Source: Phoronis australis (taxonomy: Eukaryota > Animalia > Phoronida). From it: a stretch of DNA of 45,954 nucleotides. Both the position numbers and the translations under genes were made by a program. Shown one piece after another: positions 8,101 to 41,904 of this stretch. Within the stretch, counting starts at the first letter, position 1. Each line of letters begins with the position of its first letter. Under the pieces are notes generated by a model. It was given only the letters and a program-made list of their open reading frames with translations. It was not told where the DNA came from and searched no databases. The stretch is from positions 1 through 45,954 of the forward strand of contig NMRA01000057.1 in NCBI GenBank assembly GCA_002633005.1. The letters are read 5' to 3'.

Positions 8101-8924
8101 ATCAAATGAGGCATTTATCAATTTTTTATATTTTTTTTTGTTTGGATGTTAACAAATACGTTAGGCACTTAAAGAATTTAACATTGGGAGAAATGCATTT
8201 TAACTGTGCACTTAAAGACCAAAATCAAGTTAGTGACATCTAATAACCCACGTTCTCTATATGTGTACCAAGTGCCACGCATGTAAAGCGATGACGAAAA
8301 AGACCTCATGAGATTCATTTGCACCTTGTTCAGGAAATAGTCCCTTATGGGGGTCCTTTCTTGATGAGGAACCTCTGTAATTCCTCAGTATACATGTACG
8401 TTCAATTCGTCATGAATATAAAAGCTAATGTAAGCCATCGGTGTCACGCTTTGTTGGGGCAAAATCGCTGAATTGCTGTACATCTGACCCATTCATCCTC
8501 AAAGGTCACTTGCCAGGCAAATTAGATTACCTGTTTGACTGGCAAGGGTTCAACTAAGAAATGGCGAAAGGTAAGCGAACGTTTCTTATCGAGATGTCCC
8601 CTCCCTCCCTCCCTCCCTCCCCCTCTCTCTCTCTCTTTCTGTCTTTTGACACTACGAGCGACTCTGCATCAAGCTGTCAAACAAAAAGTTTAGTAGTGTT
8701 TTCAAAGAATTTTGTGTTAACGAAGGGCTGCTACCAAACATGGATTGGTTGTATTAGCGAAATTGTGCCCGTCAGTTGCAACGTATGCCATTTTGAAAGT
8801 GCCCGAATATTCCCTTTCAAGTATGTAAATTAGCAGTAAATAAATATTGAGATGAGGTCTGATCTAATTGTGAAGCGTATGCTTTCAGTTGTTTAATTTG
8901 AACTGACTGGTGACAGATGCCTGT

Positions 8925-9367: not shown

Positions 9368-10158
9368 GATTCCTTTCGTGAGGATATCAAAGAAAATGAA
9401 ATTTACACAAATTTTACATCCTTGAACATTATGCTAAATAGAAAGCGGATGTTTTTCCACGAGAAAGACGTGTATTCTAGGCTGAACAATGTTGCCATTG
9501 AATTTAATGACGAAGGATGTCTTTATTTTTATCGATCTGTCTTAAATGTTTGCAATTCCCTGACGTTAAAACTGGTGTACTGCCACCTGTCTTTGACAAA
9601 TACTAAATTATCAGTCAGTGAATCAACGTTTATATGGCAGTTAATTATATAATTAAAAGCCCCTAAGCTTTGCTGAAGGTGCGCAACTCTTGAAGCTCTG
9701 TCGTGAAGGCAGGTGTCGTACATGTAACTGTTGGTCACACGAACCTGGTCATAGCTATCCTTAGCGTACAGTTGCTGCGCATGCGTGTGTGTAACGTGAT
9801 ATCCTCTACAGGAACACACATTTTAGATTGGACGGATGACAGATTTAATCCTAGGACTAAGGGAGTACACAAACGCACGTTCATCGGCTTACTTTTGAAC
9901 CGAAACGTCTCCCGCTTTTGAAGTTTTCAATTCCAGCACCTTAAAAAAGTTGAAATCTACAATACTCCAACGACCAACTTGAATGAAACATTTACACCCA
10001 CAACGCAAATATGCAGACTGAGAGTACAATGACATGTATACACACGGAAAATGCTAACCATTCTAAATTGCTTGAAGGACGTCATAATGTATTTGCTCCA
10101 GTTTATATCACACATTTTTTGGACTTCTGCGACGTTTCGTTGGGCGATTTTTCAGTGA

Positions 10159-10186
10159 ATGACTAGAGAAATTAAGAACAATGCAG
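10159..10186 (+). CDS. SBP-like gene exon 1 (MTREIKNNA, phase-1 donor)
   Basis: ATG ACT AGA GAA ATT AAG AAC AAT GCA G|gtaatc. The phase matches the exon 2 acceptor and supplies the basic n-region of a signal peptide. Least certain exon because it is short. Confidence 0.65.
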
Positions 10187-13100
10187 GTAATCGTTCACAT
10201 TTATTATTGTACATGTAGTTTTAAAAGAACCTTTTAGTTTCAATTGAGTTGTTGTAATGTCACTGAGTGTATAAAATTCATATACCCAGACAATCCCATC
10301 AAATCAAAAAACTGCAGGCGGTCAGGTCTAACCCAAATACATACTACTTAATAAATGCAAAAGAAAACAGGCATTGGTCTAGTCCATGTGGCTATAATTT
10401 CCTTTCATTTTCAATAGGCAATAGGTCAAAATGAAAGTCAAAGATAGTTCCAGTCACGACTTCAACAATCTAATCAATGCAACCATCGCATTGGCCTATA
10501 GTTGACGTCCACCGCCACACTACTATATGTTCTTTTGTGGCTACTATTGTAAATTATTAATAGGGCCTTTCATGCTAACGCGCACGTTTTGGGGAGTTGC
10601 GGCCAGTACGACCGCTTAACTTCGGTCCTGGATCGAAGTTAAAAGCACCAGTTCACTTCACAGTAAACTATGATGGGCCGTTGGGGGGAAAGTGTCGCCC
10701 GAAAAATACGAGCGTAATCGTGTACATTACGCCGTTAATTACGCCGTAAAATTACGAGCGTAATTTAATTTTTTACGGCGTAAAATTACGCTTGTAATTT
10801 AGTTTAAACTCTTAGCCAATGACGTTGGGTTTTACAATCCACGATCGCGCGCGCTCATGGGAATACTTATTTACAGACGGATTTCATGTCTACGATACAA
10901 GCGCTGAATCATGGCGGATCAAATCGCTGCTGCCATGTCAGCGATTGTGAAAGAACGAGCTGACCAGCAACAGTCGTGTATGCTAGGTCATCACTGATTG
11001 GTTTAAATTTGGAGCGTTCTTAAGGTATTTTACGAGCGTAATTTACGGCGACATTTCCCCCATTTAATTTACGGGCGTAATTTTACTGCAACACTTTTGC
11101 AATTTAACTTACGCTCGTAATTACGAGCGTAATATTACGGCGACACTTTCCCCTCAACGGCCCACCAAACAGAGCGGAGCGTCGACGCTGCGGTGGAGAA
11201 TGAACGGCCAATTTTGGCCCCATCGGAAGTTGTCGACGGGTGCCATTGTTATCGTCAACAATTACAGGCTAGTGTCGTCGATGATAGTTGCTTATATTTT
11301 GCTCTAATAATCACCTATCGAATTAAAAATAAGTTTTATATCAAATTAAAAAATAGTGTGCAGAGTGTAGTTATTTATTAACTTTGAAAAACCGGCCCCT
11401 AGGTTTGGCCTTTTGGTTGCGTAGTGGTACGTAAAGCAACTTGCTAAGTAGCGCCTTTATGAGGCAGACGCTGAGACGTAGCTTTCTGAGACCATTTGCT
11501 GGAGCCTCTCCGAAACGCAAGGTAATTTGCAAGGCATTGTGGCTTAAAATCTTAGCCTATGGAACGGAAATCGCGACTTAATTCCAATAATGCAGAATGC
11601 CAGCCTCATCCCTGAATCTATTCAGTGGCCGCCGTTTCGGTTGTCTACACTAGTCTTTGTTTATGCGTTGTTTACATAAAGCATCCAACTCACCGATCCT
11701 ATGAGCCAGCAGCAGAAAAATAGTCAAAGCGGCGGACCTTTGAGTAAATATCGGGACCACATGTCAAGTATGGGCTGGGAAAATCACCAATATGTCCAAC
11801 GGGTAAATACAAAAAGCACACCGAGAGTGGTGTAGATGAAGTCATACAACCCACAAAACATTAATACGCGGACTAATGTCGAGTGCGATGTGACTTCATC
11901 TACGCTAATCGAGGTACGTTTTGTTTTTGTCCCATACACTACGAATTTCTAACTTTCTATCGTTTTTTCGTAAGATTTTCTTAAATGCTTCACCCAGAGT
12001 GTTCACTTGACGGATCACACCCTATACGTATGTACTTAGGTTACAAGTTTTCTCTAGTAAATTCAACAGTTTTAAATGTAAAGATTTATAAATAGAAAAG
12101 AGGTAAAGAGGGAAATAAAATTAAAACATTAATTGTGCATGAACTTGTAGTATTACCTGAAATTAATTAAATAACAATAACATTTGATACATTTGATATA
12201 GTACATGTAGTTACCAAGAAATCGATGCCTGAGTTGCACACGATTAAATATTTAGCAAAAAAGTTTAGACAGATAACAGTTTTGTACCAGATGTAACGTT
12301 TAGGACCCGATTGCATGTCGAGTGTGATTTATGCTGCTGTGTTTTTCTTACTTTAAAGTAATTTGGGAGAGCTAACGACATCAAGTAGACATTAACCTAC
12401 GTTTTGAACCTTTCACGTCGATAGCAATCAGTTGAAGTAGGCGCGGGAGAGCAATACGGAAAATAATATCACATGGCCGTATTGCACCCGACGTGGTGTA
12501 TGGGATAAAGTTGATAAATGTATTTCGGCGCCTTGTTCACGGCTGTCCGCTGATTGTTGTTGCATGATATTTGGGATTTTTGAAACGTAAAATAGATGAT
12601 GTTCTGACGTCGATGCGTCTACCAGTCATCAGCCGGACGTCAGTGGAAGTCTAACAACTATCTACAGATCACCAGGCTAATGCAGGGCGATCTCGAACAT
12701 GTCCCGATGACCTGCGCCGTCCAACGGTTCATAAGTCGGGCGGACGACGGATTAATTTCATTTTTGCCGGTGGATATTTCTGTCGTTATAAACTTCCGAG
12801 AAGAGCCCGAATGTCGGCCAATTTGACCGTTGTAGCTCCGAAAATGATTAATAATTAGCATCAGAAAGTTATCGTGACCCTGACAGTGCAAGTGATCCGT
12901 CATTCTTAATCCGGCGGATTGGCCGAGTTTCGCTCGATGTATGGGAAAGGTATCAAATTTCAAGCCAGAAAATCTCTTCTTTCATGTACATATAGCTCAC
13001 CTTCATTACACAACACCACAAATTCAACACATTATTCGCTGATTGACAACCCAAAACTAGGTAACTAGGATAAATAATGAATTTATGATCTTAAAATCAT

Positions 13101-16100
13101 CAGTGCATAAAAAAGAATGCACTTATCTAAAACGTCAAAACTATTTCATAATGGCAGATATATAAATTCAAACCATTCGAAAGTATACATTGCAAAATCT
13201 CTAGTTATTTATGTAACGCTAAAGGTAGCAGAGTTAACAGCTTGCACAAGAGACCACCACTAACTCTAGCGAAATTGTTATTCAGAAAAACAATAAATGA
13301 GGGTAGAATGAAATAAATTAAAAGTAACAGAAACCTTTTTCATAATCTATAAACGAGAATTTATGTGTGCTGTGTACATTGAGTGATAAAATGTCTGAAA
13401 ATACCAGAACTTATTCACTGATTTGGGGTGGACTGCATGATATGATTCTACAACATATGTATACGTAAAATGCTGAGCAAAACGAAAATTGAAAATCTGA
13501 TTTTGCACAAAATTCAATACGTATATCTGATGTGCAGTACGTAAATACCAATTCTTTTGAAATCCTCTATTCAATATGCATAACAAATATTGACCACAAA
13601 ATTCTGCACATCTTCAAAATTGATCTACGTACATGTAAATGTTTTTCATTTTTCATTTTGAGAAAGAACGTTTTCAATTTCGTTGTGCATGTTCAAAGCT
13701 GACATAACGAAAATAGCTGAGATTTATGAGTTTCCTCTGTTGCTAACGTAATTGCATGTCCAAAATAACTAGGAAAGCCAACTAAAGAGAACTGTTGCAC
13801 ATGTAAACCTACAGTGTGTTTCTCCTTACTTGTATCTTTTCAGTTCTTATTTCCTCTGTCTTATTTGTGTGCGTCTTGTCATTCGCACGTGCGCGAAGTG
13901 AGGTGACCTGTTTCAGCAGTGACTCCACTTCCGGCAAAGGGAAAAGGATCTACACTATTGCACATGGCCACGACTGGAGAGCGTATTATTATATGTGAGT
14001 ACGACAAGTCGTAATCATTGTCAAGTGATGTTTTCAGACCGACAAATACATGTAAATCCTGTGAACATGTTATTTTTCGAAACCTACTACGATACTTACT
14101 GTCAAAATACTGTTACAATTTTAGACATTGCTTGAAATTTAACATCAAGTCCTAGGGAACGAAAATCCTATGTACTATTTCCTAGAGTTTACTTGGTAAT
14201 GGCCGTTTGTACGGTGATTTCAGTAATCGAAACAGTTTGCAGCATAACTTTTTGTTATTTACAGAAACAAAGACGGTATTATCGATGGGTTTCTGCTCGA
14301 CCTCATCAGAGAAGGTAAGGACACTAGTTCACTTCGTTAAAATTTCGACTATTTAGAAACGGCTATCGCCAATGCACGCGAGTTTCTCGTATGTATATTG
14401 CGAGGGAACTGTTTTTTCAGCCTTCTTATCGTGGGAGCAAAGTGATGAGAACCGCTTATGTCCTTTTGATATACTCATGTCTGAGATCTTGCAAAAATGC
14501 AAATGATACGATTTTTTCATGGACGTCAATGTCGCCGATATAAGATTGAATGTATCGTGCGCCATGATTGAAGACAGCATAATCACTAGTCGGAAGTATC
14601 GAACAGGTAGGGTCAAAATACTTCTGGACGCGCATTGTCGTATGCGAATTCTTGGTTACGATTATTTTTCGTGTCTGAGTAAGGGTTAAGCTCTGTAGAC
14701 GCAAATTTCTCGCGACTTAAGGTTTTGTTCTACTTGCTTGATTGCTCTGCGTGGTGATAATTCTATGCGAAATTCTTGTGGCTATGGAATGCACAAACGA
14801 TATAGATGGTCGCATAGAGATTGGTAAATTGGGGTATCCATTGTTCACTTTGTTTATCTTTGTTGTAATAAAGATAGCGAAAAGCATTTATCGGTAACCG
14901 GCTGTTGTGCACCTAAGTTACGGTATCCGTGCGACCTGTATTGTGAATGTTATATCCAACAAAGACACAACAAAGAAAAATAATAGTTTAGCGGCATGCC
15001 GTTCCCTTGTGCCAGACAAAGTGACAGGTACACCGGTGGCGATTTTTTCGTGTCCACGTCCGAATTTGCTTTTAATCATTTGAGAGACCAATCCGAATAC
15101 CGCTGTGCACTGGCAAATTGTTTTTTGTCTTCACCTCTGTACAATGTATCTTCGAAGCTTACCAAATGGTTTTCATGAAATTCCACAAATATGTTTTGCA
15201 TTAAAGGTTCGCCTGTGCTTTTTTATTTTTGGATGATTTTGATCAATTTTGCCTAAATTTGTTTCATTTTCGGGCCCGTGTTTTGCCGTCCTCCTCTTTA
15301 TTTGCCAAGCCGCTCGACGGATTACGCGACTGTTGTGGCGCCCCCTATTGGCGTTTTCGTTACTTATTGCAGCCTCTGTTGTATTTCCCTTTTTGCATGA
15401 TTTTTGTGAAATTTTGGCGTATCCTCATCAATGTGTCATTGGCTGACCATGACTTTTGGACAACCTAACTACCGCTGTTAACCTTAGTGGCAATTTTATT
15501 TTTTTGCATATGCCTCTACTTCCTCAGAGCTCCTTGTCGGCTTTGATTTAGCGAATAGGTTTATATGGGTTTCGACGCCACCTTTTGGCCATTTTTATTA
15601 ATCTTGTTTTCTTCGTCTGATATTGCATTTAATGAATTTGTCCAGTGAACATCTCTCTGAAACCAATTTTTCTACCTGTGTGGGATGTTGACATAATGCT
15701 ATTCTTAAATTCGCGACCCGTGTTCTTGAGATGTTTAAACACAGCCAATCTACAATACAATCTGTCCATGCTGCCTCCAGTGTTCTAGGAGTTATATTTT
15801 GTGTGTGTGTAATGTTCATCAAACTAGATATAATTCGATTCACAACAAAGTTTCCTTTATTGATAAACAACTACGTTATTTATTTGCATATTTTTCATTA
15901 TCATTGTTATTAGTGATATCATCATTTTTACCGTTGTTATTATGTCCTTCTATGCTCGAGTACATACAGTAGTGACTCGCGTGAATAATGCTAGACTGCA
16001 CTTGATGACTCTAGTACTCTGGTTAAAGTACACTGTATGAATCTAAACTAATTTTTCTTGATATTCGAGGTGTGCTTGAGGCTTTGATGGGATATAAGGG

Positions 16101-19100
16101 TCATCAAGTGCAGACATGGACTAAAAGCTCATATAAGTAAAAAATGTACTCGGTTACAGAGTGGTATGGAGTTCACTCAAAAGTAGAGCATAAAATGGCA
16201 ACAATATGATTTCGAGATCGGTTTTGAATACATAGATTAAATCCTGACCCTTTCCAGGGAATGCGACAGCTTCGAAGACGGCAAAAGTGAAGAAATTTGA
16301 CGTAGTAATTCATGAGAGTTTTACTCAAAATAATAAATATTTTTCCGCGAGATCACTGTTTAACTTTATTTTTGACAGACCAGAGTCCGGGGGTATTTGC
16401 CTTAATACAACATGGGTGTTCCCACGTTCACTGAAAATGTACGTTTTTAGACAAAGTGTGAAGATATGAAAAGGGTCATTTAAAATCATAACATTGTTGA
16501 AATGAAGATTTGGTGTACAGTTGGTTTACATACACAGGAACCACAAAACTCTCACAATATTAGAATCTGAATAAACCACTCGGTATCAATGATCTTTTCA
16601 CCTGCAAATCACTGCAGTTGCATTATTCCTCGTATGAACCTGAGTAAACTAGACGGGAACGTTCGTATCACCGCACACCGCGTTTAATATAGATGTTTTA
16701 TTTTTTCATTGACACTTGGGAATGGGGGTATGTTTTCGTTAAAATTCTTTGTTTCTGCCTAAAGTGTTTTAGGGAATGATATTAAAAACCTGTAGAACAC
16801 TGTGCGACACCCAATTTTGGGATTACGGGATTGGGTAACACCACAGCAGCGTAACAAGTTTTGTCCAGTCGGTTATTTTGAGAGCTGCCCTGTCAGTTTG
16901 TCAGTGCCTGACATTTATTTCTGAACAATAATTAAATCCGACTTGAGCGAAAATGCAAGTGTCTGATAATATGTACGTGCTCATAATTACTTGGCTAAAA
17001 TTTTATTTAGAAACTGTGTAGTGCTATCACAAGAACAACTTTCGGTCTTAATTTGCTCATGATCATACCCCTGGAGTGCACTTGACGACAGCTAACAGAA
17101 AAAGTATTAAATTTTATCTTTAGCTGGTCCCTTCCTTTTACATGTACTGTATCTGAGCAACAGAGACCTCATTCAATAGTAGTACATTCGCTCAGTAACA
17201 TCATTGCGAGGTGTAATATTATACTAATCGCTTTGTGTATTTGACGCAATGGGTTGTCATAACTGCACAACTGTTCATTTTCACATTACTCTAGTTTGTT
17301 CCGCTGTCGGCGTTGACTGTCGCACTGTCCGGGAACCATACCGAAATTGTATCAAGTCGTTGGCGGGCCAACACTCTCGCGCTGGACCAGGACTGATGGA
17401 CCATTGGTATGACGCGTGTGCAGGATGGTTGGTCTCTACTACAAGAATGTCGATTTTCTCGTTCTCCGAGAGCTTCGCGAAGGAAGCGCCCTCGAGCTTC
17501 TACGTGAAATTCAGTGACAACAGTTTTGACCCAGCAAAGTACAGCGAATTCAAAATTGGTAAGGCGACTTGAAACTGATGCTGGGCAAAATTTGTGCACA
17601 CAATTAAGAATGGTAATCGTTATCATCAATGTTCTGTGCGTTTTCCATTCAGTCTGATAACATAGGCGGATTTAGAGACGGGGGATATTCTCTAATTATT
17701 CAATTGAATAGAATTTTATGGCCGGCAAGCCAATTTTAAGGCCTACGACGGCGTTTTCCCCGAAGCCAGTGATAGGCTCCCTTATGACACCTAGATCTGC
17801 CAGTGGATACTATCATACTGATGTTTAGACGATTCATAAGAATACTATCAGAGGAAGTCCATTTATTTGTTTGCCACGTCAGCCATATTTCCGGACGCCA
17901 AAGAAATATGTCCGCCAAGAGACTATTTGGCGATTTTTTGTTTAACCAATTTCAATTCAATCCAAGAACGAGGCGCATGTCATGGATTTGAAAAAGCAAA
18001 GTGCCTTGAAGAAAGTTGGTGTTTAAACACCAGAGGTGGTGCACGTTGGTTTTTATATTTTTAGGACATAAAGGTGAATACACGAGAAGCCAATTTTCAC
18101 TCATACACATGCACTTACAAATGCTCCTCGGTTTCACTCAAATTTTTCCCAATGAGGTAGATGTACATGTACCATATTTCGCATAGAGGCGCAAATTCAC
18201 ATTCATGCGCATGGGCTCAAATAGTTGTCACAAAGCATTTTCACAAGTGAATGATCAACTTATTTTTTGCCAATTACTACTGTTTTAATTTCTGTAGTTA
18301 CAGAAGTATAACTAGACAATCGATTACTTTTGCACTCACGGGTTCACACCTAGCCACACCTGGGACATTAAGGCAAACGTTATTTGCGCGTATGCTGATT
18401 TCAGTGGCACTACGGCACTGGACATAGATTAGCATGTGACTGTAATTTACACATGCGGAGGAAACGTTCACATAAGAGTAGATATTAGAATACCTGAAGG
18501 ACAATGAGAGACTTTCAGGAAGTTAGGATGATTGATCAGGTGGGCCCAGTGACTCACATCGCCACCTAGTTGAACCAGACGTTATAAATAGTTTGCCTCC
18601 GCAACGGGTGGCATAGCGGGGAAACAGATTAATATCGTGAAAATACCCTTTTGCAGTGTATGTGATTAAACGTAAAGCATTTTAAACAAAAGTTATGAAA
18701 TGCCTTCTCTTCATCTAGAGGCCAAGTTGCTATTTGAACATCTCCCATCGGTCCCAGAACTTTTGTGGCTCGTCTTATCAAAGGTCACAAGCTCGGTCGG
18801 TATTGTATTCACATGCATGATTACAAACGCTAAGCATGATTATAAGAGGTAAACGTCGCCACTATTAATTTAAATAAGCTACGGTTTGGGGTTCATGATG
18901 GGTCCTTCTTTTGTACAACAGTCCCATTTTATTGCAGTTGTAAAGAAAAGTACTATTGTAATAAATAAGGGCACACGGATTTGTAAATTTTCTTTTAAAT
19001 CGGCTTTTTGTAACAAATCGGGCCCAGTATAGTGAGATCCGATTTGTTACAAAGCCGAACTTGGTATGCCTTCAAGAATACAGTACAATGTACGTCCGAC

Positions 19101-21309
19101 AGTAGCCAGCTCAGGATTCCTCGCAAGGAACCATCCGGTGTACACCCATTGCCAGTTCGAGTGTACTCCCAAGCAAACCGAAGGCCAGCTGGAGGGTACT
19201 CACAAGGCCAAAATCATGGGATACTTCCAGATCCCCGGCTCGAAGTTGTACTCCCAAGATCAGGTGGGCAATGTATTTTCACGTCTACTAAGTTGTCGTG
19301 CACATGTACGTCCATGGCTGCCGGATGGGTTGCTCGAGAACAGTGACCGAGGTAGTGGAAGCTGTTAGCGACTGTTGGGAATGGTGAAGCGAACGATGAT
19401 GAGGATTGCAGCCATTAAGGATCCACACGAGTACTGAACCTTGGATGTGTGAAACTAACTTTAATTCGAAAGTGATCTGTAATATAAAACTTTACAATAA
19501 CTTTCGTAAACCATTAAATGTGATAACAAATTAAATTACGACGGATTTTAGTTACGACGGAGCATTCTTTCTTTGATTAAGTGGACCACCAGGAACATCT
19601 CAGGTACGATCGTAGCCTAATATTTCTCTTCGCTGTCTGCGCATGTGCGAACTTCAGTGATAGGCATGTCATGTGACTCTCAAACTGGAAAATGATTAGC
19701 CGTATGACTGAAGTATATAAAGAAAACAGTCATCTCCGAGAGCAAATCCGAGGCCACATAAACATCCGATGATATCCGAATGGGCCTGTACGCATACTCA
19801 CTTGATCTGTATTCACAGGTTTTGTTGATGGTTGGGTTTACGACGAGAAGTGCCTCTATCGGCTGTACGGCCAGTTACTGCCACAGAATCGAGTTGTACA
19901 TTACACAACTTCATTGGACCTGCTAAATGACGTGACTGAGGGAAAGGTAAGACTTGAACAGAATATGAGTATTTTGTCACCGCAGCTGAATTACAGCGGG
20001 CGCTTGAAGCAACTACATTTGTCACTGTGTTCCTTGTCGTTGAATAAGTTAGTCATAGTATACAACTCTGGTAACTATGATAGATGTATAATCGACCTGT
20101 GGTATTGTTTTCGCTTAAAGCCTGTCTTGAACGGTAGCACGTGTAAAGCAGAGAATGTACGGGTACGAAATTGTTGATTTTATGACACTTCAGCCTCAGT
20201 TTTCTATTGCTAAATGTGACATCGTCTACAACTCAGGCGCCGATTCTTTGATAACTACAGTACCAAATATTGTTGTTATTTGACTATTTTCAGGATATGT
20301 TACAAGTTCAATAAACATTTGCTTTTGTTTTTACCTTTGTTATTTCTTTTCAAGTAATAAATCGTTACATTTAAAATTGTTTCTATGACTAAAGAAACTT
20401 GTAACCTAACCCACAAGTACATAGTCATATATATACGATGTGTTCCGTCTTCTGAACAGTCTGGGTGAAGGATTTACAAAATCTGCCGAAAATATGAAGG
20501 AAACTTAGGAATTCGATTGGTGTAGACATTGAAGTTGAGTGTCCACAAACAAATATCGAATTACTAGGGCATGACGGAAGTCATCTGTCGCTCTCTCTTC
20601 ATGACGCCAAACAGCTGATGCGAATACAGTACATTCAGCAAAAAGAGACCGCAGCTGATAATTACTTCCACCTTGCCAAGGTGTTCGGTTACTCAGCGAT
20701 TGAAAGTGGGGCAAGTTATCTTAGAATAACTTGGGGAAGCAAGTTCGAATAGTTTAAATAGCATCCAGGCAGCCCTCAAACCTAGCGACAACTTGTTGTA
20801 GGAGTAACTTTTTCTAGGGCATGTCAGTGTTTGGACGGCACTACAGCAATTACATGTATCGCCTACATGTATATTTTGTCACATTTCGTCCGTGTTTTCT
20901 CACGAGAAAATACCTGCAGTCTTCGTTGTCGTCTTTTTCATTCTACATGACGTTACGCGGGCATACCCCAATCTTTACAAACCATTTATTACGCCTTGAG
21001 TACGAACTGTTTACGAACAAAACTTTCCGAGCGCATTGCCAAATTCTACGAAAGAAAAGTAGTCTCTCTGTGTGTTTTATTGACTTACATGGCGATTTTC
21101 CCTTTCTTTTGCTCCAAAAATCGTACATAATGACGCACTATCGCACCATTGCGCTACGAATTATGGGTGCTTCGGTCCACATAGTTCACGGTGTTCGTAA
21201 ATAGTTCTTTTTCATCGTGGGATCAGCTGTTACCCATCAGTAAGCACGGGTACCAGCTCGTACTGTAAAAATACACACCCACAAGAACGTGTACACGCCA
21301 ACTAACACC

Positions 21310-21372
<63 letters not shown>

Positions 21373-21991
21373 ACACACACAGCCTTTTACACACTGGCGT
21401 CCGCACAAATGCACGCCCACACGCATATACACTGTACATGCGTATACTCATTGGCTTAACGTCTGAAAACGGCATGCTGCTGGTGTTCAATTATAATTGT
21501 GGTGTGCAGTTTCTCCTGTGATTGGCTCTTACTCATAAAGATTCGACCACTTACATCAACAGGTTGCAGCTGCCTACATGGGAGACGATATCTTTGGAAT
21601 ATACACGACTGGTTCTAACGCGAAGTTGAAGCGAGTAGGAAACCCTAAACATTGCTCAGTTAGAGGTTACGCTATGATGTCACGTAAAGACTCGGACTTT
21701 CCGGCGATATGGAACGATGGATTCCAAAAGATTGTGTCCAGTGGCGCCTTTAAAAAACTGTGTGATCAAGCAAAGACAATACATAACACAGGTGATTCCT
21801 TTAATCTAAATTGAAAATGTAAATTGGTTGTTCCTATGAAATTTGGCCTGAGTCTTGATATTGCATTTTTATGCCTATCGTATATCTGCTGTAACCAAAA
21901 CTGGCAATGCACTTGTAGACATTTTCAGCAAAAATAACTTTGGTCCTGTTCTATTATTTTAGATGTGAGGGGATCGATTGACTGCATTTGA
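10159..21991 (+). CDS. Spliced 7-exon gene (292 aa) for a secreted type-2 periplasmic-binding-fold protein, SBP_bac_3 / HisJ-ArgT-ArtJ-like amino-acid-binding protein. Exons: 10159-10186, 13844-13994, 14265-14314, 17295-17558, 19819-19946, 21563-21791, 21963-21991
   Basis: All six introns are GT-AG with compatible phases (1,2,1,1,0,1). The joined CDS is 879 nt with no internal stop. It starts with a signal-peptide-like MTREIKNNAVLISSVLFVCVLSFARA. Motifs DGIIDGFLLDLIREVCSAVGVDC, YDA...STTR...FSFS, DLLNDVTEGKVAAAY and GYAMMSRKDS...WNDGFQKIVSSGAFKKLC occur in SBP family 3 order. Confidence 0.88.
10674..11164. mobile_element. Non-autonomous TIR element (possibly PIF/Harbinger-like) in intron 1
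   Basis: 26-bp TIR tgggccgttggggggaaagtgtcgcc / ggcgacactttcccctcaacggccca (1 mismatch); many TTACG(A/G)(G)CGTAA subterminal palindromes. Confidence 0.85.
13844..13994 (+). CDS. SBP-like gene exon 2 (VLISSVLFVCVLSFARA...KRIYTIAHGHDWRAYYY)
   Basis: Polypyrimidine tract plus ttttcag acceptor; AT|gtgagt donor; hydrophobic h-region ending in A-x-A. Confidence 0.88.
14265..14314 (+). CDS. SBP-like gene exon 3 (INKDGIIDGFLLDLIRE)
   Basis: tttacag acceptor and G|gtaagg donor; matches the G-x-x-x-G-F-x-x-D-L motif of SBP family 3. Confidence 0.9.
17295..17558 (+). CDS. SBP-like gene exon 4 (VCSAVGVDC...YDACAGW...SEFKI)
   Basis: ctag acceptor and G|gtaagg donor; lies within ORF 17249..17572; C-x6-C pair as in HisJ/ArgT. 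Confidence 0.9.
17661..17804. mobile_element. Short MITE in intron 4
   Basis: cataggcggatttag ... ctagatctgccagtg imperfect TIR, same terminus family as 2834-3140. Confidence 0.55.
19819..19946 (+). CDS. SBP-like gene exon 5 (GFVDGWVYDEKCLYR...LLNDVTEGK)
   Basis: cacag acceptor and AAG|gtaaga donor; open in the required phase. Confidence 0.9.
21313..21381. repeat. (AC)n microsatellite in intron 5
   Basis: Visible dinucleotide run. Confidence 0.98.
21563..21791 (+). CDS. SBP-like gene exon 6 (VAAAYMG...GYAMMSRKDS...KKLCDQAKTIHNT)
   Basis: aacag acceptor and G|gtgatt donor; overlaps ORF 21578..21814; carries the C-terminal SBP motifs. Confidence 0.9.
21963..21991 (+). CDS. SBP-like gene exon 7 (DVRGSIDCI-stop)
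   Basis: ttttag acceptor, phase 1, TGA stop; the duplicate at 39815-39843 keeps RGxIDCI-stop. Confidence 0.8.
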
Positions 21992-22104
21992 GGAGACGTC
22001 TTCTTTCAGCCATCTAACATAAACAAGAGCACTAAACCAAGAAGGTGTGATATTTAGGTTACGTATTATTAGATTTCTTACTGCTTCATTTAAGTTTAAA
22101 GTGT

Positions 22105-22110
22105 AATAAA
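22105..22110 (+). promoter_or_regulatory. Candidate polyadenylation signal of the SBP-like gene
   Basis: AATAAA about 115 nt after the stop codon; a second AATAAA lies near 22275. Confidence 0.5.
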
Positions 22111-22329
22111 AAACTTCAACTCAAATCTTAATGAATGATATTTCTCTAACAGGATACACTTTTTCAAAAAACGACTACAGTTTAAGCTTTTTAAGTTGAA
22201 TATCGACCGATTTTCTGGTGGTACACCGACAAAATGTTCACAATATATTAAGTTATATTGAGCGTTGTTTAAGTAATAAAATTATTACCTTAGGATATAC
22301 CGTTTCACTCAGTAATGAGTGTTGAATGC

Positions 22330-25300
22330 TTAAATTAACTTTTGTGATTCTCACCAAAATAGAGCTGCAAAACAAGGCATGTTATTTTTAAATCAGTACA
22401 AACACTCCATCTTTGTCTCATGATTCTTTGAAGTTGGCCATTCAATTTCGTCGGAGATGAGTTCAATCTAACCTATCATGGACTGATATCAAATTGTACT
22501 GAAAACAGAACAGTTACATATAGATAATTTACGAAGTATCCTAAGGAGTGGCATCCATTTAGATTGATAACACCCGCTCATTGCTGTAAACTGGATAATT
22601 TTGGGTTGTGTGGTATAAACTCCATTTACATGTAGTTCCCTGTTAGATTCTGCTCTCTTATAATTTTGATTTTAACATTATTTATTTTAACATTTTATCG
22701 TGTATGAACGTTCTAAAATGCTTATAAATGTACGAAATATAAATGGAAGAGCATGGTTTTACTGACAAAGTTTTGTTTGCAAGCCACTACATTTAGGAAA
22801 TACACGACTGTTGAGTGACAATAATTGCAGAGAAAACTCGTTTTTTCAAACTCCACTTAGCAGATTTTCTCACAACTTCCGCGTGCTCCATATAACGAGC
22901 CCTTTTCATTGAACAAGTGTATCCTATATTTGAGATGAACTTAGTTTTCACTGTAGAAATCACCCACTGTTTCTTAATTTTTGTCCACCTTTGCCCATAT
23001 GCTTTTATGAAAATTCTTCGATGTGTGTCACGGTCATCCAAAAGAGATTGTGTTTGAGGTCGGAGCTCAGATGTTGTTTCCTGCATTGAGATTCAACGGT
23101 GGCGTATTTTGTAAATTTTATGCACTGAAGGAAACAAGTTTGGAGACTCCTGAAATAAAGAAAATGCGTGAGCTTCCAATAAAACTGAATTGTGACACTT
23201 GTATTTCGGAAACATTTGGTACACCACTACATATTGATTGCGAAGGCTTCAGTTGAAGAATGGTTATCAGGAAAATTACAACCACATTTGGTATCAAGAT
23301 AATATACTTTGAGCTGACATTTTTCATTTTATTCATCCACATATGATTGTTGAAGCCACAAGACACAAACTTAGCCCACGTTAAAATAATCCCGATGTTC
23401 GTTTACGAAATGGTGTATGACATTCCATCCTAAGGCAGCTACATGTATAAAATTCCGTTCCTTCAGAGAATGTAATGTTTGGACCTTAAACCACTTAGAG
23501 AGCTTAAAACCCCCATTTACATTGTTTTGACAATTGAATACATTGTCAAGTACATCATTAAGCCTTCCTTTATAGCTTTGAACGTTACAGCCGGTCCCAA
23601 AAACGAAAAAATAGGCGACTGAAAAGCGCCTAATTGATCTTCATGAACGTGAATGTAACGCATGAACTCACCCAGAGCCAGTGTGTTATGACCACCAAAA
23701 TGCGAGGTTCTTGTACACGTGTGTGCCATGTCAGCGCTTCTCTGATGTCCTACAGGAATGCGAAAAGACACCCAACGTGCTCAAATGCGGAGTTATCACA
23801 ACCGTCAAAAAGGTAGCTCCTCATTATACTTTTTAGACCACAAACCTCGGGAAAATGAACAGCAACACAATGGACGATGACTTATCCTAAAATTGGTTGT
23901 TCCAATTCTACGTAGTATATATATTAACCCACAAATATTCGTAATTCTAAGTCATCTAGTGTTTAGGGCAATAAAATCTAGCACAGCTTATTCCAACTCA
24001 AATGGGGGCTGGTTTCTGGGCGTGGAAGGAAATGATATTTCCTAATGTTTGAGACCATTTTCGGTGCTTCAAGTGACCCACGCCTTGACGATCCATTTCC
24101 AGAGACTGCTTTCATGCCAATTACGAGCCGTCAGCTCTTTCAAAGCCAGAATCTCTTTAAACTGACTCAGGAACAATTTGAGAGCATTTCATAATGGACC
24201 AAATCATTTTTTTGCGGAAATCTGGTTTGTGTGGATGCTGTAGAACAAGCTTCACGTTCCATGTCGAAGACATTTCTTTTAACTAGAAAGTGTTACACGT
24301 GCATTTGCATGGCAATCATATTTGACTTTACCTGGCTGAAATAAGCTGTTCGAATATCGTTACATTTCAAGCCAGTATATGTAGTGAAATAATGTAAAGT
24401 TCGTCAAAGTTTGCAATATAGGAACAGTGCGCCAAAATATCTGCAGACATTCACGTGAAGGTACAAGAGCGCCCCCTTACGAACTTTCTGAGATATTTAG
24501 TTAAGTAAGGTTGCAAGTCTTTGAGTAAAAATTACCCATGCTGTGTACAGACCAGGCCCTGATATCCTTGTTATGACATATACTGTCGCACTCGAATTAT
24601 ATTGTCTCCACATGGATGATAATTTATGCCGGCAACATTGACACACATTTTTGGGCAACAATATTTGTTAAGTGTGACAATGGCGTCAACATCGACACAT
24701 AGATGTATTCTGGCGACAAAATACTCACTGAACACCGACATATCCTGTAGCCTCTCGACTATGTTGAAATGTAGTCTGCTTATCAGGGTTTTGGAAATAC
24801 AGTCGTATCCAGAGTCAGAGGTAGGTCCAAAACTTTGAGAATGTCCAAACGGTAAACGGTACACCATGTAGCCCCTGATAGTTTACATGTACATGTAGTT
24901 TAGCATGATTGCTACAATTCTCTCCATCAGGCTAGATGTATGTGCGTGTTTCAGCTCCATGTGTTTTAAAAGGCAATAGTAGAGCTTTGGCCATGAAGTA
25001 AGAAGTTTCCACCTCTTCAAAAGCACATTTTATACCTGCAAATATTCCTTCAAATCGCGTAAGCCTTAAATCCTCAAGCAATCTCTTCTTGGGTGAAACA
25101 ATCCATGTCTTTTTGAATTAAGACTGATTTGGAGAAGAATTACAATTATTTCACTTATTTGCTTACTGTGAACTTTTTCAAAGCATAGCCACTAGTAAGC
25201 TTAGGTGATGTCACACGACTTAGGACTGAGGAAGAGGCTTGCAACTTTCTCATACGGGCAACCTTCAAGGGATGATCGGCAAAATTTTATGGATATGCTC

Positions 25301-25930
25301 AAATCAAGTTATGTGGAGTAAACTCTTTTCTGAGTCCTGATATGTGCTAATTGTAACTCATTCTGCGATATGCATGCTTCGATCACTCGGTGTTGTATTT
25401 TGAAATAAGTAATTTTTGAAAGTATTACCTGTACTGCATGACGTTGGACCCAAAACAGGTGCTGCAACGGCCTATTTGACCTGGGAAAAACTCTGTTAGA
25501 TGACAGATAACGACAGTCACTATAAACATGCCTGGTGCCAGCGTCGTTTGCGGAAACGTTACTTTTTCCAACAGGCACATTTGAGATACTAAAGACGTGC
25601 TTTACTCCCTCCAGTTTTCGGTACCCATCACCCGAACTCTGGATCTCCATTGCGCTGCGCTCACACAACTACTTGAGAATCCCTCGGACGGAGGAGTAAC
25701 TTAAGGTCGGGGGTATGAGTGTGTGATATACACAAATATTGTCGATTTAGTGGGGCAAAAAGGAGAAAAACTTGGGCAAAGACAGAAAAGTTGGGGAAGA
25801 AATCCCTCTCAAATTCGCAAAAATGACTTTTTGTAGTTCGTTTCCTTTCTCAAAATTGTGGGTTTTCTTAGTACTCTTATCAAAATGTGTTGTCACTTTT
25901 CTGAGTAAAACTGAAAAAGGTGTAAAAACC
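22330..25930 (-). pseudogene. Possible long decayed intronless coding region, product unknown
   Basis: Successive protein-like minus-strand fragments (ORFs 22793-23086, 23517-23771, 24571-24867, 25309-25668). The same frames stay largely readable in the duplicate at 40.45-41.69 kb. Confidence 0.35.
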
Positions 25931-36020: not shown

Positions 36021-37293
36021 AGTTATGGTAATAGTTTGAGGTTCATTTCAGGATTATACGTGTTAGAGCTACGCGCTATTGAATAAGTTAAACTGAATAT
36101 TTGCTCGCGGGGTTAAAACGAGATCGATTAGTGACTTTTAGTGTATACAAAAACAGACATTAGTTGAAGGTTGTTTTGATGGTCAGGACGTAAATGAAAT
36201 ACTCCGTACGACAGCGGGCAACAGTTCGAAGGGCCGATATTCCAAAAAAATGATGACACTTCGACTCGCATATAAAATATCAATTTTACACCTTCCTGAA
36301 TTTCTTGATTCTCGAAACTCGCCATGTATCTGACATCAGAAAGGGTAACGTGCAAAAATCTGTAACTAGTCTTGCAGGAAAAGTCAGAAATCATTGAAGT
36401 ACCACTAACTTCGGAATCACGAATGTAGAATAGATACATGTAAACTCAATGCACTCTTTTTGTCCTTTGAATGTAGAAAACATAAACCCCATTGCAACCT
36501 TGTTATGCTATATTTCACAACTTCTTATAAGTTAGCGACTGAACTAGTGTGTGAGACATTGACTAAAAGTAAAAAAAATGTATAACCATACAACAAATTA
36601 CTAAGTACTGTAGCAAAACATTACAATTAACTTAACGTAAGTAGGGCGGTCAAACCATATTTTTTCATTTTGAAGGATTTTGTATTATCATCGGAAAGAT
36701 AATGCATCCTGTTCAATAAAAATTGAAAAATTGTCAAAATCGGGGCAAGTGAGCGTAGGCACACCTAGGCGCAGCTAACCACCTTTTGGCATTTGAACGT
36801 AGCGCTTACTCACCATAAGTTACGGTCAGTGCCCAAGGTGATAGGGTGGGTTTTGGGCGCCTACTTACCTCTAATTTTACCACTACACCACTGAGTGCAA
36901 AAGCATTGTGGCAAAATTTTGCTTACTTGTTTGGATCGGGTCGGCCATCTTGGACGTCTGCGGGATAAGTTACGATTTTAAAACTGCGTATTAATAATTT
37001 TCACCAATTAATAATTTACGGTGAAACTTAGTGAGAATTATCTTTACTTACGATTCTTGCGATCGAACAGTTTTCATCAAATTTCAACCAAGGAGATGTT
37101 ATTTAATGAGTGATAAAATTGCTCACATTTCCGACGGAACCGACAACATGGCAACTTCTGCTGAACTAAAACACATGTTCAACCGGCTACTTTGTATCTT
37201 GTGATGAATTAATTTTTATACATTTTGATGAACGCTGCTGCAAAAAAGCAACTTAGTTCAATTTTCACGTTTAGTGCAAAAAATATCAGAAGT

Positions 37294-37733: not shown

Positions 37734-38752
37734 AAGCTTAAATGTTTCAATGTACTGTGCATTCGAAGTTACTTATTATGGTAAAACGTTAGATTACTTT
37801 GGCTTAAATATTTACGTCACTGTACTGAGATTATTTCAGTTGTGACTTATGTTCAGTAGATGTAACACTCAACTACCTTGAAAGTCTCTTACTCCAGAAA
37901 CCAAATATTGAGTTCCGACTGAAATCACTTGAATTTGATTTGAGCTGTGGAATACTAAACGATTAAACTATAATCGTCTTCTAACTTTTTCTTTCATTTC
38001 AATGAGTGAGTGACCAAAGCTTGATAGAATTAGCTTGCTATAAATAAGGTGCTCACTGGCATCTTCAGGCAACATTTCTTGATGCCTTGGGTTTACTATT
38101 ATTTCAATAGATTAACAAATGAATTTAAAAAAAAACCTTTGCCGATGTTTCTGACCCATTTTTACGCAGTTCTTGATCCTTGGGGAAACAGCTAGTAACT
38201 AAATTCTTTATCTCGCTAACTGTTATTATATCAGCCAGGTACACAACACGTGATGTATAACCTCCCTGCGGCCGGTTCGCCCCCACGCTTGCCGACGTAC
38301 TTGTTTACTGAATAATAATGCATTAACCACAATGCAACATTCTGACCCATTTCCAATATGGCGGGGTTGCAACTCGAATATTACGAGCTGATCTATCTGA
38401 ACGATAACTGAGCTGACACTGAGGCTCACGCCAAGGCCTGAAAGTACAATAATGCAATAAACTAGCCACTACTTTATTAAACTGATCTCGCCTTGACTTG
38501 AACGTAGCTCTCAGACTGCTATGTCCAATAACACAAACTTCAAAACACTTGAAACGTCACGTGACAACAACATGTGTGTTCCTCCAGAGATTTTTCTCGT
38601 GTTGCGGGCTACAATCTAGAGCAGATTTGGACTTAACTTGTAGTTTCTCCTTACTCCACAAGAACTTAAAAATCTTAGAGACGCTATTTGGAAAACTTGA
38701 GGAGGATTTCAGGTAATTTGTTGGGTCGAAGCTGTATTCTTATTCAAGAATT

Positions 38753-41690
38753 TGTCGCTCTCTGCATGACGCCACACAGGTAATGCAAACACATCGTGCA
38801 AAGGAATTCCGCAGCTGAAAATTACTTCCACCTTGCCCGGGATTTCGGCCACACAGCAATAGGAATTGACGCAAGTTACCCTAGAATAACTTACGTACGG
38901 GGACAAGTTGCACTAGTTTAAATAAAACCCAGGCAGCCCTCCAACGTAGCCTTGTCTAGGGTTTGTCAGTGTTTGGACGGCAATAATTCGACCAGTTTTC
39001 CGACCCAGTGCCGACAGCTTAGGCAATTGTTGACGTCTCCTAACACAGGTCTTCCTGGTCTGTTCTGGCGGACAAAATGTGACCTATCTATAATATAAAA
39101 CGGAAAGTTCACACGGATTCCGTCTCCCCCGCTCCACTACAGACCTTCCTTTCGCCCACTTAGGCACTGCATTTGTCCCAGGTAGTGAACTTCGCCTTTA
39201 TTCAGATTCGAACTGTTCTTCTTTTCTCGCGGGCTGTTCTTTTTTCTTGGAAGCTGGCTTGTTTTGTATCGGCCATCGGCCTTGGTGACGTCAGTCCGTC
39301 GTTTTAGATTCAATCTCTCCAAATTCGATCGCATATCTGCTACTTCGGGCCTGTCACTGCCAAACTTGGTACTCGGCTTTTCAGCAATTATCGCCTGTAT
39401 TTTGTCACGCATCGCCTGTGTTTTGTCACGAGAAAAGCACTGCACTCTTCGTTGTCTTTATCATTGTACATGATGTTACGCGGGGACACCGAATGTTTAC
39501 AAACCCTTCATTACGCCTTAGTACAAGACTCGACTGTTTACAAACATAGCTTTCCGAGTGCATTGCTAACATTTACGGAATAAAAATAGTCTCTATGTCT
39601 GTTATACTGACTTACATGGCGATTTTCCCTTGCTTTGGAGATGACTTTCGTTTTATCTAAATGTAAATTTCGTTTGGTTGCTCATATGAAATTGAGCCTG
39701 CGGTCGGATATTGTATTTTACTATAACTATCGTTAATCTGCTGTAACCAAAACTGGCAATGCCTTCGCAGATATTTTCAGCAAAAATAACCTTAGTCGTG
39801 TTTTTTTATTTTACATATGAGGGGACCAATTGACTGCATTTGAGAAGACATCTTCGTTCAGCCATCAAATAAAAACAAATTAAAGCATTTATTCAAGAAG
39901 GCGTAATATTTAAGTTACGTATTATCAGATTTCGTAGTACTTCATTGAAGTTAAAAGTTCTACCCAAATCATTTTAACGAATGCTTTTTCTATAATTTTT
40001 CAAAGAATGACTTCAGTTTAAACTTTTTGTGTTTGAATATCGATTTTTGGTGCTGCAACTACAAAGTGTTCACAACATAATAAGTTATATCTAGCGTTGT
40101 CTAGGTATTAACTTAAAGACTATGGGCCCGTTCCAAGAAACTTAAGTCTAACGTTGGTAGGTCTTTGATTTGATATGATTTGGTCGCGTTTTCTGTTTTT
40201 GACTTTCAAATTTGCCGAATCGACTCTCTTAATTGCAAAAACAGGGAAAAGCCAGTCGAGCTCACCCCCCAACTCATTGGTCCTGCAAGTCGGCGCTTAT
40301 TCTACATGTGTATGTTAAGATCGAGTCGAGCTAGAGTAGACTGGGTTGAGGCGATTGCGGGTCGCGGGTCGAGGGGGTCGTGGATCGAGGGGGTCGTGAG
40401 TGGAGGAGTCGTGGGGTGTGTGGGTCGAGGACGTTTTGGAACAATCCACAAAATACACAGTGAACGCCGACATATACTGTCTCCTCTCGACTATGTTGAA
40501 ATGTAGTCTGCTTATCAGGGTTTTGGAAGCAGCCGGAATCAGAGTCGGAAGGAAGTCCAAGAATTTGAGAATACCCAAAAGACACTGTTGAACGGTAGGC
40601 AATGCATAGGCCTACATGTAGCTCCTACTAGTTTACTTTAGCGTGACTGCTACAATTCAGGCTGATAAGTATTTACGTATTTTAGCTTTATGTGTTTTAA
40701 AAGGGCAGTAGTTGAATTCAGGCCATGAAGTAAGAAGTTTTCACCTCTTCAAAAGTACATTTTTACACTTCAAAATGTCACTCATAAGTATACCTTAAAA
40801 TCTCCAGCAATCCTTTTTCTCGGCGAAACAATCCATGTCCTTTTGAATTAAGACTGATTTGGCGAAGAATTCCACCTTCACTTTTTGGTTGCTGTGAACT
40901 TTTTCAAAGCAATAAACACTAATAAGCGTAGGTGATGTCACACGAGTTACATGCAGGACTGAGAAATATGCCTGCAACTTCCTCATACCGGCAGCCTTTG
41001 AGGGATGATCGCCAAAATTTCATGGATATGCTTAAGTCAAACTACATGTATGTAGAGTAAATTCTTTCAGAGTGACTGTCCTGGCAAGTGCATGTATTAA
41101 TTGTAACTCATCCTGTGCTTCGATCACTAGATGTAATCCGTCGTATCTTGAAATTTGTAATTTTTGAATGGGAAAGAATTACCAATACTGTATGAGGTTG
41201 GGCTCCAAAAGAGGTGATGCAATTGCCTACCTGACGTGGGGAAAGCTCCGGGAGATGATACATGATGATTATAAGCACGCCTGGTGCCAGCGTGGTTAAC
41301 GGAAACGTTACTATTTCCAACAGGCACATTTGGGATACTAAAGACATGTTTTTCTCCCTCCAGGTTGGTACCCAACACTCGAACTCTGGATCTGTAGTAC
41401 GCCCCGCTCTCACAACTACTTGGGCGACCCTCACACAGAGGCGTAACATTTGGTCAGTGGTATGGGGATGCCTTGGCGTACCCAAAAACTGTCGATTTAG
41501 TGGGGCAAAAAGTAGATCACTTGGGCAAGGAAAGAAAAGTTGGGGAAGAAGGCCCTCTCACATTTGCAAAATTTACTTTTTGTAGTCCGTCTGTGATAAA
41601 TTTGCCTTTCCCATAACTGTGGGTTTTCTTAGTACTATTATCAAAATATGTTGTCATTTATCTTGTGAGTAAAACTGAAAGGGGTGTAAA
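38753..41690 (+). pseudogene. Decayed partial duplicate of the SBP-like gene 3' region and its downstream flank
   Basis: Collinear blocks: 38753-38982 ~ 20586-20840; 39382-39637 ~ 20843-21110; ~39640-40110 ~ 21795-22275; 40448-41690 ~ 24716-25928. Exon 6 is absent. The last-exon copy at 39815-39843 has its acceptor AG changed to AC. Confidence 0.8.
40160..40447 (-). mobile_element. Partial inverted copy of the 8925-9367 MITE
   Basis: aattgcaaaaacagggaaaagcca, gtagactgggt, the gggtcg repeats and the end ggaacaatcc are reverse complements of 8925-9180. Confidence 0.75.
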
Positions 41691-41904
41691 ATCCCAACTA
41701 CGCACAAGTTCGCGATATATTACTGTCAGGGCGTTATGACCACTTGTTACTAACTCGACATACTAGTTCCGATGAGTCCACCAGTTAAATATAACCCAAA
41801 GCTTATTCACAAAAATTACCTGTTTTCACAATATTTCACATTTGTTTAGCAAACTTTCTAATTTTCATTGTAGGATTGTAGGGGAACTTTAATTACAAAA
41901 TCTA

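Follow-up and report, generated by a model that had tools for sequence, protein, structure and literature searches.

Animals are usually said to use the fold of bacterial solute-binding proteins (SBPs) only inside glutamate-receptor channels. A contig of the phoronid Phoronis australis (GenBank NMRA01000057.1), analysed here over its whole stretch of 45,954 nucleotides and called the window below, raises the question of whether such a protein can also exist as a stand-alone animal gene product and, if so, what it binds and where it came from. An earlier account made from the letters of the window, referred to here as the sequence-only reading, had placed at this locus an intron-containing gene for a secreted, HisJ/ArgT-like amino-acid-binding protein. 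The gene is real: it is spliced, transcribed and of animal type. It encodes a stand-alone, signal-bearing protein of bacterial SBP type with relatives already present in invertebrate annotations, as that account had anticipated. The product is likely a secreted Venus-flytrap protein (SBP family 3) which captures a small carboxylate solute without a free alpha-amino group, a reading to which we give a probability of roughly 0.55.

Close to the exon positions proposed earlier, a single phase-compatible GT..AG combination exists, which yields seven exons, 879 nt and an intact open reading frame of 292 amino acids (aa) with one terminal stop, as predicted (intron phases 1, 2, 1, 1, 0, 1). Residue numbers in the Phoronis protein follow this 292-aa model. 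Its parts, and a second candidate for the first exon, are:

8417..8424, plus strand: TATA-box-like element about 140 nt 5' of the likely start codon (chance expectation about 0.21 per 260 nt)
8561..8570, plus strand: likely first coding exon, three codons plus 1 nt, phase 1, for a 286-aa product (donor score 6.97; G at -3 and +4)
10159..10186, plus strand: exon 1 of the sequence-only reading, the weaker candidate, with an alternative start and a 292-aa product (in phase; donor score 3.62; no TATA box; T at -3)
13844..13994, plus strand: exon 2, with the hydrophobic signal core, a predicted A-x-A cleavage site and the start of the binding domain (20 bits on the family profile)
14265..14314, plus strand: exon 3, 50 nt, collinear with HisJ and relatives
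17295..17558, plus strand: exon 4, with Cys78, Cys85, Cys95, Cys118, a family-specific insert, Trp121 and Arg127 (Arg77 of HisJ)
19819..19946, plus strand: exon 5, with Gly169-Trp170 (Gly119-Thr120 of HisJ) and Cys176; reads across both junctions
21563..21791, plus strand: exon 6, with Gly214 (at the position of HisJ Asp161), Cys238 and Cys274; reads across both junctions
21963..21991, plus strand: coding part of exon 7, with Cys291 and the stop; junction 6-7 in 8 reads
22105..22280, plus strand: a pair of poly(A) signal candidates, at 22105 and 22275, from sequence only

The true first coding exon is likely 8561-8570 rather than 10159-10186, a choice made on sequence features and favoured because of the TATA box, the donor score and the G at -3/+4. 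Of the six in-phase ATG..GT candidates 5' of exon 2, it alone is preceded by a TATA box; its donor score is the highest, and no other ATG occurs in the 115 nt ahead of it. The exon at 10159-10186 is in phase, as first proposed, but it is the weaker of the two, and the bin 9800-10230 which contains it has no sense reads in three RNA runs. Both starts lead to a signal-peptide-like N-terminus, with the start at 8561 adding a short basic stretch before the same hydrophobic core. The signal peptide and the lack of a transmembrane or channel segment, both part of the earlier account, hold up: the protein has one N-terminal hydrophobic stretch which ends in A-x-A (maximum 1.9 in Kyte-Doolittle hydropathy over 19 residues, KD19), and past residue 40 no hydrophobic segment exceeds 1.5 on this scale. 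Furthermore, it has ten cysteines and no N-glycosylation site. The G+C content of exons 2-7 is 47%, against 40% for the gene span.

The RNA evidence comes from three runs under the same species label, about 18-19% of each run being taken. Stranded reads join 17558|19819 (exons 4-5, 6 reads), 19946|21563 (exons 5-6, 4 reads) and 21791|21963 (exons 6-7, 8 reads), in each case with GT..AG borders, and confirm the last three of the predicted junctions. Exon 2 is covered by sense reads, mostly of a diverged copy, and exon 3 by about one read each in runs X1 and X3. Many reads carry 12-15 differences and another exon-7 sequence, and therefore a diverged copy of the gene is likewise expressed. In run X3, exon-4 reads have 3-4 differences, and six of seven reads at 21745 agree with the window. 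The SBP gene is one of several copies, with low-level expression in these samples. Contigs of X4 mapped solely to repeats.

The diverged, more abundant transcript is about 88-92% alike at 13844-13994, 17431-17473 and 21745-21791, and its exon 7 is unlike both window copies, which suggests that another paralogue, or else a very distant allele, is expressed. The second of these window copies is a remnant:

38750..40111, plus strand: decayed tandem copy of the 3' end of the gene, with intron-5 pieces, no exon 6, 76% identity in the last intron and exon 7, and a lost acceptor AG

The duplicate region extends over 38750-41694, where 20583-22279 and 24716-25930 match at 71-81%. It is conceivable that the intact Phoronis copy is itself a decaying duplicate whose open frame has survived by chance. 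The broken duplicate 18 kb downstream, the diverged copy as the source of most reads in X1 and X2, and Ala209 in place of a usually conserved Asp are consistent with such a fate. We nevertheless consider it very improbable, as the frame is open over seven exons and 13 kb, all eight family cysteines and Arg127 are kept, the branch length is ordinary (0.86) and X3 contains near-identical spliced reads.

The family to which the protein belongs was uncovered in a search of 1.84 billion representatives with exon 4, which yielded 90 proteins at E<=0.001. SBP_bac_3 (PF00497) was present in 67 of 69 scanned relatives, in 61 of the 69 above the Pfam cut-off. The two others, P0013 and P0064, were dropped as false matches without this domain. 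The assignment of the Phoronis protein to PF00497 is made through these scans and through its score of 282 bits on a profile of 54 relatives built without it. Among further searches, a word-index search with exon 4 gave 15 candidates, none of them significant, an Atlas search with exon 4 gave nothing beyond scores of 0.79-0.81, and exon 6 against the PDB reached only ArtJ at E 0.5. Over the whole domain, identity to the Phoronis protein is 46% for a relative from Lingula and 40% for one from Branchiostoma. Named members are found in Lingula, Branchiostoma, Ptychodera, Lytechinus, Anneissia, Elysia, Haliotis, Mytilus and Priapulus and thus cover six phyla of protostomes and deuterostomes (brachiopod, amphioxus, acorn worm, echinoderms, molluscs and priapulid), in agreement with the great age that the sequence-only reading had given to the transfer. 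Their annotated names range from "uncharacterized" to "ArtP-like" and "histidine-binding periplasmic protein-like":

Lingula XP_013403832.1 and Branchiostoma XP_066301533.1: annotated, uncharacterised members
Priapulus XP_014662490.1: annotated "histidine-binding periplasmic protein-like"
Anneissia XP_033121401.1 and Haliotis XP_067678786.1: annotated "arginine-binding periplasmic protein-like"
Elysia GFS25155.1: annotated "ArtP-like"

No sponge, cnidarian, arthropod or vertebrate name occurs among the matches, which are mostly unnamed transcript-length records, so that absence from these groups is not implied. No account of the family was found in the openly available literature: periplasmic and solute-binding terms are absent from the main text and two supplements of PMC4729200, and a term search of PMC6307864 gave no description of it. 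Members may be listed in the gene tables of papers on invertebrate genomes or proteomes.

Judged from the exon-4 matches and their Pfam scans, family members appear to stand alone, without fused domains; some are tandems of two or three domains. Hydropathy profiles show a strong N-terminal anchor in 29 of 54 relatives and a signal-like stretch in 18, with seven having neither, and an internal transmembrane-like stretch was found in none of the 54. The proposed secretion of the Phoronis protein agrees with its short signal, but secretion is the less common form, since most relatives, among them those of Lingula and Branchiostoma, seem to be anchored in the membrane. All eight family cysteines are found in 63 of 71 animal-like domains and in 24 of 24 domains of a bacterial-type family described below, against at most two in 16 canonical SBPs. 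Their spacing suggests four disulfides (78-85, 95-118, 176-238 and 274-291) which would brace the protein.

The SBP_bac_3/PBP2 fold named in the sequence-only reading is borne out by the Pfam scans and by structural modelling. A model of the Lingula relative (46% identical; pLDDT, the predicted local distance difference test, 86.7) places LAO (the lysine/arginine/ornithine-binding protein), STM4351 and HisJ on top in Foldseek (E 4e-16). In VIA-align the model reaches Z 22.7 with a bacterial binder of His/Glu/Gln/Arg; GluR0 follows at 21.0, and glutamate-receptor domains of animals and plants lie at 16-19, the gap to the bacterial binders being modest. This model argues for a two-lobed PBP2 fold. 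The motifs which had been compared with HisJ by eye are collinear with the actual Escherichia coli HisJ, at 18.6% identity over 220 columns.

The same fold could also have been freed from an ionotropic glutamate receptor (iGluR) or ionotropic receptor (IR), the protein then being a counterpart of the molluscan acetylcholine-binding protein. Such a descent would fit the Z-scores of iGluR-type domains (17-19, with GluR0 at 21) and the Pfam model Lig_chan-Glu_bd, which touches four of 54 members (best E 0.035). However, SBP_bac_3 is matched by all 54 (best E 2e-21), and the best 60 of 190 PDB sequence matches are all bacterial-type binding proteins or engineered or ancestral forms, with no iGluR among them. 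The HisJ-type Cys38-Cys45 pair is retained. The alignment to HisJ is continuous, with no intron or insert at the site where iGluRs carry their channel segments. The closest kin are, moreover, bacterial-type proteins. On the basis of the Pfam matches, the PDB ranking and the Z-scores, an iGluR origin is unlikely, so much so that we give it hardly any weight, and the earlier placement closer to bacterial basic-amino-acid binders than to iGluR domains stands. What the protein shares with the iGluR/IR ligand-binding domain (PF10613, PF00060) is the PBP2 fold (Z 16-19) and the same backbone-binding Arg; according to PMC6307864, this Arg and an acidic residue are the two keys which hold the amino-acid backbone in the iGluR domain. 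It differs in having no channel segments and in the loss of the acidic amino-binding residue, and its relatives have no significant iGluR Pfam match.

The exon-4 search also reached beyond animals. Among its matches are two proteins whose signals are of bacterial type and a protein of the green alga Prasinococcus capsulatus that consists of three repeats. The algal member (P0030; EP00958 P000938), known from a single transcriptome record, is the sole named non-animal eukaryote match. Its inserts are long, it has 4-6 of the cysteines, and its hydrophobic tail resembles a glycosylphosphatidylinositol (GPI) signal. A metagenome scan yielded one locus, L001, with 67% G+C and an intronless gene for a 300-aa, signal-bearing family member, flanked by an unknown gene and a convergent flavin oxidoreductase. 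No permease or ATPase of an ATP-binding cassette (ABC) system was found beside the L001 gene or among the open reading frames of the window. A profile of the bacterial-type members then returned 51 clusters, 49 of them new and some on contigs of 0.4-5.8 Mb. This bacterial-type family (L001/P0113, P0047, P0005 and P0116-P0164) shares with the animal-like domains the insert after position 52, Trp71 and the aromatic residue at 120, and with the Phoronis protein also the eight cysteines (24/24) and Arg77, at 18-25% identity. The animal and bacterial-type profiles match each other at E 1e-31, as compared with 6e-17 for HisJ; one bacterial-type member has a predicted LAO-like fold (pLDDT 73.7; E 1e-9), and the family has a ninth cysteine and keeps Tyr14-x-Pro and, mostly, Asp161 of canonical SBPs. 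The evidence for calling the family "bacterial" consists of L001, the sizes of the contigs and the type of signal, because two pattern scans of GTDB representatives gave 29 and 19 pattern matches with no relative confirmed; the patterns were narrow, which makes this weak evidence. Plasmid scans gave no match for P0047 and one at E 0.03 for P0014. Within the bacterial-type family, P0120 and P0135 have the cysteine-rich domain behind an N-terminal region of about 290 aa without a Pfam match, and P0047 has two domain copies and a weak MYXO-CTERM-like tail.

What the protein binds can be approached through the ligand-binding positions of LAO, as listed in the titles of LAO mutant structures and given here in HisJ numbering, which were counted in 71 animal-like rows, 24 bacterial-type domains and 16 canonical SBPs. 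The carboxylate-binding Arg77 is kept (Arg127 in the Phoronis protein; 69 of 71 animal-like rows), as is Gly119 (Gly169), and position 52 is aromatic (Tyr92) in 55 of 71. The remaining contacts have been remodelled. Position 161 is Gly214 in the Phoronis protein and an acid in 3/71 animal-like rows versus 12/16 canonical SBPs; Ser72 has become Leu122, a hydrophobic residue in 52/71 versus 3/16; and Thr120 has become Trp170, aromatic in 57/71 versus 0/16. Positions 11 (Gly51) and 30 (Leu70) are acids in six and eight of the 71 rows, respectively, and Thr121 is mostly replaced. Because the alpha-amino-binding Asp161 and Ser72 are lost, the ligand is not expected to be a HisJ-like amino acid or amine, contrary to the sequence-only reading. 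Candidates from the aligned pocket are a betaine-type osmolyte, an ectoine-like compound or an N-blocked amino acid, and likely not arginine or histidine; the arginine- and histidine-binding names which databases assign automatically to invertebrate relatives are not borne out by the pocket. Positions 72, 121 and 161 vary freely among animal-like rows, and the variation at 14, 72, 121 and 161 suggests several ligands across paralogues.

Compared with the binders of bacterial polar-amino-acid ABC systems (PF00497/TIGR01096; HisJ, LAO/ArgT, ArtJ and STM4351; PDB 1HSL, 1LST, 2Y7I and 3I6V), the Phoronis protein shares the fold, the collinear motifs, the Cys38-Cys45 pair, Arg77, Gly119 and an export signal. 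It differs from them in its low identity (17-19%), six extra conserved cysteines, an insert of about ten residues, its introns, the replacement of Asp161, Ser72 and Thr120/121 and a window without ABC permease or ATPase. Many relatives are, in addition, type II-anchored or tandemly repeated, unlike these binders. A parallel for the pocket is EhuB, the ectoine binder of Sinorhizobium meliloti (TIGR02995; PDB 2Q89; Z 18.6), which has Arg77, Tyr52 and Phe72 and no Asp161. Its aromatic residues presumably form a cation-pi box. EhuB is only 18.8% identical, does not share the extra cysteines, has no aromatic residue at 120 and is distant in the tree, and the likeness is one of design, not kinship.

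The main competitor of the carboxylate-solute reading is that the Phoronis protein binds ordinary alpha-amino acids by means of an altered contact, its role being to scavenge or buffer free amino acids in solution. The closest solved structures are Arg/Lys/His/Gln binders, RefSeq names imply arginine or histidine binding, Arg77 and Gly119 are kept, and Asp215 adjoins the lost Asp161. Against it stand the loss, in most rows, of Asp161, Ser72, Thr121, Asp11 and Asp30 (acids at 161, 11 and 30 in 3/71, 6/71 and 8/71) and the scores on all NCBIfam amino-acid SBP models, on which the relatives remain far below cut-off (for TIGR01096, 13-69 bits against a cut-off of 256). We regard amino-acid binding as doubtful.

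Several points weigh against our own preference for a solute without a free alpha-amino group. An acid lies within one position of 161 in 22 of 71 animal-like rows, as with Asp215, and it is possible that the amino-group contact has shifted to this neighbour. Position 14 is aromatic in 23 of 71 rows and in 17 of 20 of the Phoronis protein's own subgroup, and an acid at 161 is present in 19 of 24 bacterial-type domains. The pocket was read from alignments, not coordinates, the structure is a model of a relative, not of the Phoronis protein itself, and most "animal-like" rows are unnamed transcript-length records. Each of the four largest exons, searched alone against Pfam, gave no SBP_bac_3 match; in the three RNA runs no joining reads are listed for junctions 1-2, 2-3 and 3-4, and in the sampled RNA expression is low, with part of the reads from the diverged copy. 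A study of SAR11 binding proteins adds a precedent for amino-acid binding in SAR11_1210, which holds arginine in a non-canonical mode, and describes homology-based SBP ligand prediction as being of low accuracy, with one family member for which no ligand was found (PMC11485210). The same study also reports a new ligand class among these proteins, pyroglutamate (PMC11485210).

A different kind of alternative is an extracellular enzyme on the binding-protein fold, like cyclohexadienyl dehydratase. L001, the one bacterial locus seen, stands alone without permease or ATPase, dehydratase and chorismate-mutase entries of the same fold occur among the structure matches, and there is a conserved Asp/Asn at HisJ position 123 and a conserved His near the C-terminus. 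The columns common to animal-like and bacterial-type rows are, however, mostly Cys, Gly and canonical structural residues, with no invariant new catalytic residue in the pocket, whose positions 72, 121 and 161 vary freely. We judge an enzyme improbable.

If the protein captures a carboxylate solute as we propose, it would enter the secretory path and be braced by its disulfides; Arg127 would grip the carboxylate of the ligand, Trp54, Tyr92, Leu122 and Trp170 would form an apolar or cation-pi pocket, and the two lobes would close on the ligand. The soluble Phoronis protein would buffer or carry the solute in mucus or body fluid, no animal ABC importer partner being known. The anchored majority would act at the cell surface, capturing and concentrating the solute next to transporters or chemoreceptors that belong to the animal itself. 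Gram-positive bacteria have tethered binding proteins, and the anchored family members are alike in design.

The origin of the family was examined in trees which contained no iGluR sequences: a FastTree analysis of 113 domains and an IQ-TREE analysis of 44 (25 animal-like, 2 algal, 8 bacterial-type and 9 canonical), the latter leaving out near-duplicates, fragments and long canonical branches. Both agree in separating a cysteine-rich clade from canonical SBPs (support 100/100). In the best tree, the alga and the animals form one clade (97/84) which is sister to the bacterial-type family (99/95); the animal rows are thus sister to, not nested in, the bacterial-type clade, and the algal sequence lies between them. 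A joint clade of the animals with HisJ/ArgT is rejected (p-AU, from the approximately unbiased test, 4e-9). The direct HisJ/ArgT origin suggested earlier therefore falls, with the closest kin being cysteine-rich bacterial-type and algal proteins. Taken as a whole, this is a host genomic gene, with introns and transcripts, whose closest non-animal kin are found among microbes. The fold is likely of bacterial ancestry, and one old acquisition is the simplest reading. The family would descend from bacterial polar-amino-acid binding proteins, would share an ancestor with the cysteine-rich bacterial-type family and would predate the protostome-deuterostome split. The gene may have passed from a bacterium to an animal, may have come by way of an alga or of an earlier eukaryote, or may have returned to bacteria.

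A settled bacterium-to-animal direction, as the sequence-only reading had it, is not upheld. When the bacterial-type rows are nested with the mollusc-type subgroup, the log-likelihood drops by 4.8 units (p-AU 0.36), and when the root is set on that subgroup, by 3.7 (p-AU 0.40), so that neither is rejected; the outgroup branch is long. These values fit a cysteine-rich form which arose in eukaryotes and from which the bacterial-type family was received, as do the rarity of the bacterial-type form, with no relative in the two GTDB pattern scans, and the weaker match of the bacterial-type profile to canonical SBPs (best E 3e-4, against 5e-19 for the animal profile). The narrower bacterial-type profile also reduces search sensitivity, the bacterial-type family keeps Asp161 and Tyr14-x-Pro of canonical SBPs, and the best tree keeps alga and animals together outside it. 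A transfer from eukaryotes to bacteria is thus a serious possibility, if the less probable one.

Already known are the proteins themselves, present in RefSeq under automatic SBP_bac_3-like names. New are the breadth of the family, its eight-cysteine scaffold, the mostly membrane-anchored forms, the microbial sister family, itself unnamed and brought to light here, and the remodelled pocket. Soft-bodied marine invertebrates absorb dissolved organic solutes through their surfaces and answer waterborne cues, and we know of no high-affinity capture proteins for this uptake. A multi-copy, cysteine-braced family with free and anchored members in six marine phyla represents an unrecognised extracellular system for handling small molecules and offers concrete, small and expressible candidates for solute capture. 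Speculatively, marine invertebrates might keep a secreted and surface-anchored flytrap family which captures osmolytes (betaines, dimethylsulfoniopropionate (DMSP)-like or ectoine-like compounds) or N-blocked amino acids for uptake or chemosensing, an iGluR-independent use of the fold which would predate the protostome-deuterostome split and whose disulfide-braced form would have crossed between eukaryotes and environmental bacteria, possibly from the former to the latter. We hold this wider picture to be unlikely in its entirety.

The window contains several further features. Within the introns of the SBP gene, an element with short internal repeats and reads on both strands lies at 10640-11340 (intron 1), and an inverted repeat pair, 70% alike and likewise with both-strand reads, occupies 11942-12258 and 20207-20515 (introns 1 and 5). 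A 40-base piece at 15468-15505 (intron 3) has more than 1,000 partial reads per run on one strand and is likely a fragment of an abundant repeat or of a transcript from elsewhere. Outside the gene, the start of a THAP domain (PF05485, E 6e-7) at 1690-1824 is broken off by a 608-base assembly gap, and broken frames occur on the minus strand at 26862-28154, where three pieces had no Pfam match and which, by eye, we take to resemble a BEL/Pao retrotransposon remnant. Diverged units, about 16 in number and each 285-290 bp long, form an array at 31368-36030; they are about 72% alike and have recurring short minus-strand open frames, and one unit gave no match against Pfam. Finally, 41954-42555 is a degenerate satellite of 20-21 bp.

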